From Escherichia coli (GTDB lineage Bacteria; Pseudomonadota; Gammaproteobacteria; Enterobacterales; Enterobacteriaceae), in NCBI RefSeq assembly GCF_029227855.1, contig NZ_CP074356.1: 64,000 nucleotides of DNA; one strand, 5' to 3'. Both the position numbers and the translations under genes were made by a program. Shown here piece after piece: positions 33,334 through 42,750 of the stretch. Under the pieces are notes generated by a model, which was not told the origin of the DNA, searched no databases, and was given only the letters and a program-made list of their open reading frames with translations. Positions within the stretch are counted from its first letter, which is position 1. Each line of letters starts with the position of its first letter.

Positions 33334-36300
33334 TTACTCGCTAACCATCTTACTGAATAACTTCTCCAGATAAACGGGGCCTGTATCCTCAATAAAAAGC
33401 ACATTTCTGGCTTCCAGATTTTCTTTTGAGTCAGGTACGTTTACTAAGTCAACATAACAAGTTTCAGAAACAATAAATGCACTTAATGATAAGTTATCAT
33501 CCGATAATTTATGTTCAAGATTCTTAATTTCTTTATATAATCCGAACTTCGGATCATCAAGATTAAGATTGCGAATGCCTTTTGGATCAATAAGACTTAG
33601 CCATTGTTTACCACTTTTATCATCGACTAACCACAATAAGAAATCCGGATAAAAATTACCCGCAGTAGCAAAGCCCAGGCCTTTATTTTTAGAATCCGCA
33701 TTTCTTAGCAGATATAAACTTTTATCACCAATAATTTTCTGCCCTTTTGTCGAATCAACAAAAGACTGAAGATCCTGAACAAAAGTAATCTCGCTTGGCG
33801 CACCAAGTGCTGCCGGTCGCATTTTTAGCGGTATATTGGCATTTTTTTCAATCGAAAGAAGCGGGTAATAGAGATGTTTATCAAAGGTAATAGCAACCAT
33901 CCCGGATGCACTCCAGGATTTTGCTTTACCGATTTCGCCGTCGATGACCAATTGTTGTAATTGTTCCAGCCGACTGGCATAAGCCAACCCATCATCAGTT
34001 TCTTCGATCTCGAAATGGTACATTTTGATCATACCAGGATCATCTTCTTTCACCTGCGTGACTTCATAAAACTGACCTTCATAAGCATTTTTCAAGGTGT
34101 TGTAAAAGCGATCAGTATAATCAGTCAGCAGACGAAGCATAATATCTTCCTGCTTAGCAATATCTGCATATTGCTTAATCTCAAGCTCTGAAGCTGGAAT
34201 CAAAAGGGTATACCAACTATTTCCGATCTTTGTCTTACCGGTACAAAAGTCGATCAAACGTTGTTTATCCACACGTAAATTTGACCAGCCGCGTTGTAGT
34301 TTATAATTCTGAATGGCGAGATAAAGCCGATCAAAATCAAATGCACTAATGATTTTATAATCTAACTTCGCTTCATTGCGCACGTTAACCGGAGTATTGT
34401 CCCCTTTTCTGCTGGTATCAATCGACTCAAGTTTCGGGTATAAGTCCAGCTTAATATGCGGCTGCTTAATTTTCCCCTGAAAATCAGCAGGAACTTCATA
34501 CAATTCGGGAAAATAGACACGTTTAAAGCCGAGTCTTTGATTATCTTTATAACCATCTTTAAGCTTAAGTGTTTTAAGCCTGGTTGCTGGCATATTTGGC
34601 CGAGTTTCAAAATTCAGCTCAAGGATCTCGTCACTTGGCGTAATCCCTTCATCTTCCAGGTATTGTTTAAAGGTTGCCATGTAATCGGCACGTACACCGA
34701 ATACATTCAGTGTCTCTAATTTTTCCAGATGCAACCCTTTCGGACGCTCACCGGGTGTACTGCGTTTCAAAGAATAATTGCGACCTTTAAGGCGTACGCC
34801 ACGACCAAATAACTGAATGATCTGTGAACCTTCTCCACGGCCCATATTGAGCAATCCCATCGTTGAGACGCGCCAACTGCTCCAGCCTTCAGTAAATTTT
34901 CGCGAGCCGATCAAAATATGTAGTCGCGAGTCTTTGTCATTTAACGTATGAAAGAGTGACTTTGCAAAATCATCTCTCTGATAATCAAATGTCGTATCCT
35001 CTTCACACATTTTGTAAAGAGACGGTGCATCACCAATATTGATAAGGCCAAACGGTTCGGCCTCACCAACCTGTAATGCCAGTTCACCTTTACTGCCTAT
35101 TAAATTCAGAACTCGCAGTCGCTGACCAGAGTGAGTGGTGTTAAACAAGCGAGAAAGAATATCTGCGTAGATATCTTCCGGAGCGTTCATTAGTGCAGTA
35201 AAGCGATTTTCAAAAATGTTACGCTCTTTGGTATCGAGGATTCGCGCTTTATTTTTAATGAGATCGTTAATCCACGCTTTTGCCTGCGTTTCGTGGTTTA
35301 AAAACCATGCTAAAAAACGCAATACTGCGTGAATGTCTGAATCTTCACCACTTACCGTATTACCGACAAAAACCCACAGCGGTTTTTCGATATTAAATTC
35401 ACTTAATTTTTCTTTATTCTTATTGAATAAATATTGTTGCTGATAAAAGCTGAGCAAACACGCGGTAAAATACTCATACCGACGCTCATCTTTTTTATCC
35501 TCTTCAGGATTAAGGTTAAGAATCAGTGATTCTTTACCATAACCATCCTCATAGAAGAATTTATAGGAGTAATCGAACAGAATCGATTTTCCATAGACCT
35601 CTCGCGTCGCCTGAATACGCGCATCTCGTTTTTCTTCGCTGGTTAATGCTATTTGCGCTAACTCTTCTTCGTTCAGTTTACCTAAGGCCGTTGTTTCAAA
35701 AAGCAGCTTTGCTTTTTTCTTCTGAATTTCTGTTTCAACTGCCTCAACATTATTGCCACCGGCTACTGCCTGGCCAAAAGTTGCTGAATATTCAAACGCA
35801 AATCCGTCACGTGTTAATTTGTCACGACGGCGCATCCAGGCACCAGCAGCACTTCCGGTGCCTTTATGCCCTTCATCAATCAGAACCAGATTGTTGCCTT
35901 CAAATGCCTCAACGGCAACAGTTTTGTCACCCATTTCATCGGCAAGTTTATTGATATCAATAACTTCAATCGTGCCTTTGAAGGGCGCAGATTTACTCTT
36001 ATCGAATAACTGGTATTGGGTAAATCCTGAGTTTTCCAGCTCATCTAAATGTTGCTTCGACAGGCGTTCATCCGGCGTAAGCAGGATGATTTTATCCGGG
36101 TAATGGTGGGTATTACCGTTCTGGAAATAATGTAAATATTGCAAAATATTGACATGCAATAGCAGTGTTTTACCCGAACCGGTAGCGTTCCAGTATGCAA
36201 GTTTATTCAAGTCATCTAGAATGTATGATTTGAACTGATTAGCCCGGTCTTTTGCTGTTTTATCATTTTCAGCATTGTATGCTGCCAGCTCGTTATTTAG

Positions 36301-42750: not shown

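Follow-up and report, generated by a model that had tools for sequence, protein, structure and literature searches.

EcoR22I is a Type III restriction-modification (R-M) system of Escherichia coli ECOR22 and was noted together with an associated drmD-like SNF2 helicase (10.1101/2023.04.06.535777). Here it is compared with a cassette that encodes an SNF2 helicase, a modification methyltransferase (Mod) and a restriction helicase-nuclease (Res). The cassette lies on the minus strand at positions 33334-42750 of a 64,000-nt stretch of the E. coli chromosome (contig NZ_CP074356.1 of assembly GCF_029227855.1). This whole stretch is called the window below. In the published work on EcoR22I, mod and res alone, overexpressed from a pBAD plasmid, restricted unmethylated lambda-vir. 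Phage grown through a nuclease-dead host evaded restriction, which is methyl-protection. The nuclease-dead mutant carries D1024A/D1043A in the PD-(D/E)xK site, and its restriction was abolished. The Mod-Res complex also caused cell death when triggered by the phage DNA mimic Ocr, and the single subunits were inactive in that assay. When suppressors of Ocr toxicity were obtained by transposon insertion in ECOR22 itself, the native host, they fell only in mod and res, with none in the SNF2 gene (10.1101/2023.04.06.535777). The supplement of the same study places mod at QOXH01000005.1:288903-292008 and res at 292010-295391, which gives a 3381-nt res and a 2-nt spacer (10.1101/2023.04.06.535777).

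Other described systems share parts of this composition. Class 1 DISARM has the arrangement DrmD-DrmMI-DrmA-DrmB-DrmC. The helicase-methylase-ATPase (Hma) systems contain a 5-methylcytosine (m5C) methylase, HmaB (an N6 methylase in some BREX-related subtypes), and a DUF499 ATPase, HmaC. They were found by PADLOC association analysis. In the classical Type III enzymes EcoP1I and EcoP15I, Res needs Mod for target recognition. The hallmarks of Type III enzymes are a requirement for two unmethylated sites in inverse orientation, ATP-dependent communication, hemimethylation and cleavage 25-27 bp away from a site.

The region in the window is very probably an EcoR22I-type, Type III-like R-M cassette that stands behind a conserved DrmD-like SNF2 gene and whose mod gene is probably inactivated by a frameshift. 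The system itself is already known. Its architecture was tested experimentally as EcoR22I, and annotations of the cassette exist in thousands of E. coli assemblies. What is new here is the adjacency of the SNF2 gene across phyla, the co-variation of Res with the N-terminal domain of Mod, the swapping of a cassette within Mod and the recurrence of an A7-to-A6 deletion in mod. The original prediction, made by a model from the letters of the window, had described the block as an unclassified defense system. That label does not hold. PADLOC, which it had named as a check, places the cassette in a characterized type (DrmD-like, MTase_III, REase_III), with the full-length PADLOC models PDLC03646 and PDLC03654, and the same architecture had been tested as EcoR22I (10.1101/2023.04.06.535777).

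Gene content and protein families

Gene coordinates were obtained from an open reading frame (ORF) scan of the window, and start codons were checked against RefSeq relatives. The scan gave four long ORFs on the minus strand of the cassette: the SNF2 gene, two pieces of mod and a Res-like gene. The listed ORFs for the mod pieces are 36717-38399(-), with 560 aa from the first TTG, and 38474-39853(-), with 459 aa from a TTG. In annotated RefSeq relatives, mod starts at the ATG at 39838. The cassette genes are real and not chance ORFs because of their length and their thousands of homologues.

The original prediction had given a 963-aa SNF2 helicase, a methyltransferase of about 1050 aa and a 1126-aa SF2 helicase with a PD-(D/E)xK-like motif. 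These sizes are borne out, with 1040 aa for the intact Mod. The motifs that it quoted for the methyltransferase (GDNYQ, DPPY, FAGSG) and for the nuclease are all present at the expected places. Its gene junctions stood in part. All genes are on the same strand, with 20 nt from the SNF2 stop to the mod ATG and 2 nt from the mod stop to the res ATG, as it had proposed. It had also proposed an overlap across the frameshift; the two mod ORFs abut.

SNF2 protein. The best PADLOC match of this protein is DrmD (1.3e-199, residues 31-680). It also has a secondary and much weaker match to the DrmA model (1.8e-44) and a weak match to HmaA (7.6e-58). Against NCBIfam, its best model is NF038318 (DISARM_DrmD_b) with 667 bits, where the cutoff is 950. 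NF038317 gives 294 bits with a cutoff of 610. Pfam recognizes SNF2-rel_dom and Helicase_C, and among solved structures the core matches RapA at 3e-36. It contains the motifs GLGKT (66), DEAH (163) and QRIGR (535). The C-terminal ~280 aa form an alpha/beta domain and a long antiparallel coiled-coil hairpin.

Mod. Both mod halves match one full-length PADLOC MTase_III model, PDLC03646. The motifs GDNYQ (472), DPPY (495) and FAGSG (779) stand in beta-class order. The intact protein contains Pfam N6_N4_Mtase at residues 488-811, and its core matches EcoP15I Mod (4zcf_A) at 1.7e-39. The first ~455 residues and a ~220-aa C-terminal domain have no Pfam or PDB match.

Res. This protein matches PADLOC REase_III (PDLC03654) with 2326 bits. 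Pfam recognizes ResIII at 167-293, and only the ResIII/DEAD motif region (167-313) is recognized. It contains Walker A GSGKT (179), DEGH (280), SAT (310), motif VI with Q634 and R641, and YPD(1024)F followed by LID(1043)PK. Across 44 diverse homologues there is no variation in Walker A, DExH, motif VI, P1023-D1024 or D1043-P1044.

PADLOC gave no match to HmaB, HmaC, DrmB, DrmC, DrmMI, PglZ or BrxC on the cassette.

Comparison with EcoR22I and classical Type III systems

The window cassette resembles EcoR22I in gene lengths, order and spacing. Its res also has 3381 nt (1126 aa), mod precedes res, and the spacer is 2 nt. The aspartates D1024 (YPDF) and D1043 (IDPK) of the window Res stand at the positions that were mutated in EcoR22I. 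Both systems are from E. coli and have a DrmD-like SNF2 neighbor, and the island around each of them is P4-like or at leuX. The cassette of one E. coli locus (L087) has a P4-alpha-like primase gene directly beside it. The Res variants encountered in E. coli and Shigella all fall in one cluster at >=98%. The window cassette differs from EcoR22I in its frameshifted mod.

The pair also resembles the classical Type III systems EcoP15I and EcoP1I. It has two subunits and a homologous Mod core with beta-class motif order and a central target recognition domain (TRD). The window Res carries the SF2 motor first and the PD-(D/E)xK nuclease last. It differs from the classical systems in the extra ~455-aa N-terminal and ~220-aa C-terminal domains of Mod and in the conserved SNF2 gene that accompanies the pair. 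The window Res is moreover not detectably similar in sequence to EcoP15I Res. The original prediction had seen a Type III-like Mod and Res with an added SNF2 helicase and a large N-terminal domain on Mod. The MTase_III and REase_III models and the match to EcoP15I Mod agree with it.

Several points weigh against this assignment. The identity with EcoR22I rests on gene lengths, spacing, residue numbers and context, not on sequence alignment. The ECOR22 mod has 3105 nt, 18 nt fewer than the 3123 nt found here, and the window mod has no start codon at an offset that would explain the difference. Among the top 120 clusters there was no 1034-aa E. coli Mod allele matching the length of the ECOR22 mod. 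Because the ECOR22 mod is 18 nt shorter and there is no start at the matching offset, the ECOR22 Mod may be another specificity allele than that of the window. Searches of PDB with the window Res, by phmmer and with a 44-sequence profile, found no Type III Res chain at E<=1. Res as a homologue of EcoP15I Res was rejected, since neither sequence nor profile searches detected it. Because of this missing similarity, the name "Type III" is drawn from the order of the domains, the ResIII motif in Pfam and the labels used by REBASE and PADLOC.

Mod anatomy and allele swapping

Conservation was followed along 49 full-length Mods. It peaks at 0.84 at residues 121-160 and is lowest, at 0.23-0.43, over residues 521-760. 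The variable region lies between DPPY (495) and FAGSG (779), which is the expected place of a beta-class TRD. Residues 112-162 (window ~39350-39505, minus strand) are the most conserved block, above the catalytic motifs, and read FSRYYDxGDFISxRRYKGxTYAIPYxGEEVxLHWANKDQYY. The AlphaFold pLDDT of this block is below 50. It may be a binding interface.

E. coli has at least two mod alleles on otherwise identical cassettes (L084 and L088 vs L085). Their Res proteins are 100% identical, and their SNF2 proteins are 99.5% identical. Between the two alleles, Mod has 97-100% identity over residues 1-390 and 920-1040 and 10-50% identity over residues ~395-900. Because the termini are near-identical, the center is this divergent, and Res and SNF2 are unchanged, the alignments indicate that the central catalytic/TRD cassette of Mod is exchanged by recombination between constant termini. 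Further mod alleles were found in E. coli, E. albertii and E. fergusonii.

Frameshift in mod

The window mod has a run of six A (A6) where E24377A and STEC1575 have seven (A7). The 1-nt deletion leads to a TAA at 38474-38476. In E24377A and STEC1575, mod is a single intact gene of 1040 aa. The window cassette differs from that of E24377A by 2 substitutions and the 1-nt deletion, and from that of strain H22 by 162 substitutions (1.7% diverged). H22 (L083, NZ_CP120563.1) has the same A6, as does MS 21-1. Because the deletion is present both in the window and in the 162-substitution-distant H22, the comparison indicates that it arose more than once or spread between lineages by recombination. A homoplasic A6 suggests either that this site mutates readily or that inactivation of the system was selected repeatedly. 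Inactivation of mod has been recurrent. Programmed switching is unproven, the A7 run being short for classical phase variation.

Other E. coli loci have other lesions in mod. An allele-2 mod is split into 154 aa and 859 aa in CP090272.1 (L086). An intact res stands beside fec genes in CP125920.1 (L091), where SNF2 and mod are lost. Both of these loci encode a Res identical to that of the window. It appears that an orphan res gene is tolerated. The records also include many truncated Mod products from E. coli, some of which may be cut at contig ends.

The frameshift could also be an assembly error, which would leave the system intact and active in the source strain and would count against an inactivated mod. 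A single base in a homopolymer is the commonest sequencing error, and A7 is what the closest complete genomes (E24377A, CUVET21-37 and others) carry. However, two complete genomes that were assembled independently share the A6, among them the diverged H22, where PGAP annotates mod as "frameshifted." The split mod of L086 and the deleted mod of L091 are further, independent lesions. We consider an assembly error rather unlikely.

SNF2 linkage and distribution

Among 1.84 billion representative proteins, 2493 relatives of Res were found, 784 of them at E<=1e-30. A scan of one genome per species gave 80 loci, which were compared by tblastn with the window proteins and by a synteny count. They span Gamma-, Beta- and Alphaproteobacteria, Chlorobi, Planctomycetes, Acidobacteria, Chloroflexi, Spirochaetes and Verrucomicrobia, with one locus from Thermosipho and one from a methanogen.

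Synteny could be assessed in the 49 loci with enough flanking sequence. A DrmD-like SNF2 gene adjoins the mod-res pair in 43 of them (88%). It is upstream of mod in 37 and downstream of res in 6. The downstream position was found in Pasteurellaceae, Neisseria and Cardiobacterium. The remaining loci (6/49) have no SNF2 gene on either flank.

Conservation is highest in the helicase core of SNF2, with 50-62% identity where Res has 38-40%. Pairwise identities were correlated across 36 loci. Res and the Mod N-terminal domain gave r=0.91, SNF2 and Res gave 0.52, and SNF2 and the Mod N-terminal domain gave 0.39, all of them inflated by shared ancestry. This pattern suggests that Mod and Res are a tightly co-evolving complex and that SNF2 is a more loosely coupled module. 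The looser coupling of SNF2 agrees with the published sufficiency of mod and res.

The SNF2 protein might instead be an obligate third component at native expression. It could clear proteins from phage DNA or load Mod-Res, and the sufficiency of mod and res would then be an artefact of overexpression. The adjacency in 88% of assessable loci fits this reading. It extends over many phyla and survives a change of gene order. The SNF2 gene is also on the same strand as mod, with a 20-nt gap, and its product is the best conserved of the three. The published reconstitution did overexpress mod and res, from a pBAD plasmid; the suppressors of Ocr toxicity in native ECOR22, however, lay only in mod and res (10.1101/2023.04.06.535777). 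The loci that lack SNF2 on both flanks and its weak co-variation (0.52 and 0.39 vs 0.91) also speak against it. We judge an obligate SNF2 component unlikely.

A broader form of this idea would make SNF2-Mod-Res a distinct and ancient three-component class of R-M-like systems. Mod residues ~112-162 and the constant termini would then provide the surface on which Res and the coiled-coil C terminus of SNF2 dock, and the activity of SNF2 would be invisible to overexpression assays. That activity may be the stripping of protective or DNA-mimic proteins, a wider phage range or the control of self-toxicity. Such a class is doubtful on the present evidence.

Side observations were made in the surveyed loci. 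Two loci without SNF2 are from uncultured Chlorobiaceae (L057 at 3191-6169 and L061 at 3116-6103). When loci without SNF2 were checked for a replacement helicase, these two instead encoded a ~990-aa protein with NACHT (STAND NTPase) and FGE-sulfatase domains, directly upstream of mod and in the same orientation. This protein is without a PADLOC match and is probably just another defense neighbor.

About 20 related loci contain extra genes between mod and res or, in a few, between SNF2 and mod. Because of these insertions, related cassettes can be said to host embedded defense genes, as other R-M systems do. None is present in the window cassette. A PDC-S02 / DUF1016-type PD-DExK gene is inserted between mod and res in 9 loci (L004, L016, L026, L029, L036, L057, L063, L068 and L074). 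PARIS-like HEC-01A/B (AAA ATPase and DUF4276) was found in 3 (L052, L065 and L067), and SoFic was found in 2 (L051 and L059). One insert (L044) consists of AbiU and a PD-Lambda-2_B-like protein.

Comparison with DISARM, BREX, ARMADA and Hma

Class 1 DISARM resembles the cassette in having a DrmD-type SNF2 protein beside an adenine-type methylase and a large helicase. The cassette differs in that it is without DrmA, DrmB (DUF1998) and DrmC (PLD). Its methylase is Type III Mod-like and not DrmMI, and its nuclease is a PD-(D/E)xK domain fused to the helicase. No DrmA-, DrmB- or DrmC-type gene and no PglZ or BrxC/PglY gene is annotated within 9 kb in the flanks of the E24377A and STEC1575 loci. 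The original prediction had stated that DrmB/DrmC and PglZ/BrxC are lacking, and PADLOC and the annotated flanks confirm it. DISARM was rejected: the DrmA/B/C core is absent and the SNF2 protein scores below the curated DrmD threshold. BREX was rejected for want of PglZ and BrxC/PglY in the PADLOC matches and annotated flanks.

The cassette could still be a reduced or degenerate class 1 DISARM that kept DrmD and a methylase and lost the DrmA/B/C partners. In both PADLOC and NCBIfam, the SNF2 protein does match DrmD models best (1.3e-199; 667 bits). However, the match is below the 950-bit cutoff and stops at residue ~680, and DrmA, DrmB, DrmC and DrmMI are unmatched in the cassette, apart from the secondary DrmA-model match of the SNF2 protein, and unannotated within 9 kb. 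The compact SNF2-Mod-Res layout is kept in 43 loci, and for this reason the cassette is not taken as a decay product of DISARM. This origin is very improbable.

Hma, the DUF499 BREX-related systems and ARMADA share with the cassette a RapA/BrxHII-like SNF2 helicase that occurs with a DNA methylase and a third NTPase. ARMADA differs in its PglX-like methylase and YprA helicase. It was rejected because the cassette has neither a PglX-like methylase nor a YprA-like helicase. The original prediction had offered a helicase-methylase-ATPase module reported from E. coli pangenome screens. Both parts of that suggestion failed: the literature on Hma gives PADLOC association analysis as its origin, and the published definition (m5C methylase and DUF499 ATPase) does not describe the cassette, so that Hma was rejected. 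That the cassette is an Hma or BREX-related helicase-methylase-ATPase system is next to inconceivable. In favor of it are the weak similarity of the SNF2 protein to HmaA (7.6e-58) and the shared theme of SNF2 helicase and methylase. Against it, Mod and Res match neither HmaB nor HmaC in PADLOC, and the third protein joins a helicase to a nuclease whose PD-(D/E)xK site is of a validated type.

Proposed mechanism

Mod is predicted to be a beta-class DPPY amino-methyltransferase, presumably acting on N6 of adenine. It would recognize a short DNA motif through the exchangeable central catalytic/TRD cassette and methylate the host copies of this motif. Res, with its SF2 ATPase and PD-(D/E)xK domains, would cut DNA carrying unmethylated sites in complex with Mod. 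The same Mod-Res complex could kill the cell in the presence of Ocr. The SNF2 protein may serve as an accessory double-strand DNA translocase that is inherited with the pair in most lineages and was dispensable for both activities in the published assays.

In the window, the A7-to-A6 deletion would abolish methylation. Restriction is predicted to be lost too, because Type III Res depends on Mod and because the EcoR22I subunits were individually inactive in the cell-death assay. The system is thus probably OFF, without killing of the host.

Locus and neighboring genes

The features of the cassette are listed in Table 1.

Table 1. Positions of the cassette features in the window
Feature	Position	Strand	Remarks
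SNF2 helicase gene, DrmD-like (Swi2/Snf2, RapA-like)	39859..42750	-	963 aa; core at residues ~30-680
mod 5' part: family-specific N-terminal domain (residues 1-~453)	38474..39838	-	stops early at the TAA that the frameshift creates
Frameshift site: poly-A run of 6 (T6 on the + strand), 7 in intact alleles	38480..38485	-	alignment with E24377A and STEC1575
mod 3' part, shifted frame: beta-class N6_N4 methyltransferase core (DPPY...variable TRD...FAGSG) and conserved C-terminal domain	36717..38483	-	
res: SF2 ATPase/translocase (motifs 179-641) and C-terminal PD-(D/E)xK (D1024, D1043, K1045)	33334..36714	-	1126 aa
Leader upstream of SNF2 gene, presumed operon promoter site	42751..43139	-	ORF-free intergenic
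Degenerate leuX (tRNA-Leu) 3' end, attachment-site scar and island boundary	43140..43162		22/24 bases match STEC1575 leuX

The GC content is 0.32-0.45 over 33-43 kb and 0.50-0.59 in the flanks with core genes. This confirms the AT-richness that the original prediction had noticed by eye. Its leuX remnant and HNH neighbor were also found. STEC1575 has an intact leuX tRNA at the position of the scar in the window, and ARAGORN found no intact tRNA anywhere in the 64-kb window. Up to leuX, every base of the leader is the same as in STEC1575. A promoter scan of the cassette gave no enrichment over shuffled sequence. The cassette is most likely horizontally acquired and lies at the leuX integration hotspot of E. 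coli. When 5426 complete E. coli genomes were compared with a 10.2-kb query, 149 matched over >=80% of its length, and the exact window Res protein is indexed in >3000 assembly blocks.

The HNH neighbor, at 31743-32672(+), contains a ScoMcrA-type sulfur-binding domain (SBD) and an HNH domain. It is annotated as a phosphorothioated-DNA-binding restriction endonuclease. A 100-aa hypothetical gene at 32985-33287(+) has no PADLOC match. Both genes adjoin res in the E. coli loci with examined flanks, and they are truncated in strain H22. Together with the cassette they form a small defense island between leuX and a truncated nanS.

Past the leuX scar, the window contains a CP4-57-like island at 43200-47800. 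It encodes a CbtA/YeeU toxin-antitoxin pair, DUF957, DUF5983, an antirestriction protein and a JAB-domain protein. In E24377A, Ag43 lies further along the same island. This second integrated element separates the R-M cassette from a functional leuX.

Significance

As a discovery, the cassette matters little, being known, widely annotated and covered by dedicated PADLOC models. The swappable specificity cassette of Mod and the repeated inactivation of mod at A7 bear on how E. coli tunes the specificity and activity of its R-M systems. The cassette also has value as a model, in which an SNF2 helicase is tied to a pair with a simple and assayable R-M phenotype. In DISARM, BREX type 3, Hma-like systems and ARMADA, the neighbor of a methylase is repeatedly an SNF2 helicase of the DrmD/BrxHII/RapA type. 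If SNF2-Mod-Res were a three-component system, this E. coli model could show the role of DrmD/BrxHII-type helicases in DISARM, BREX type 3, Hma and ARMADA.

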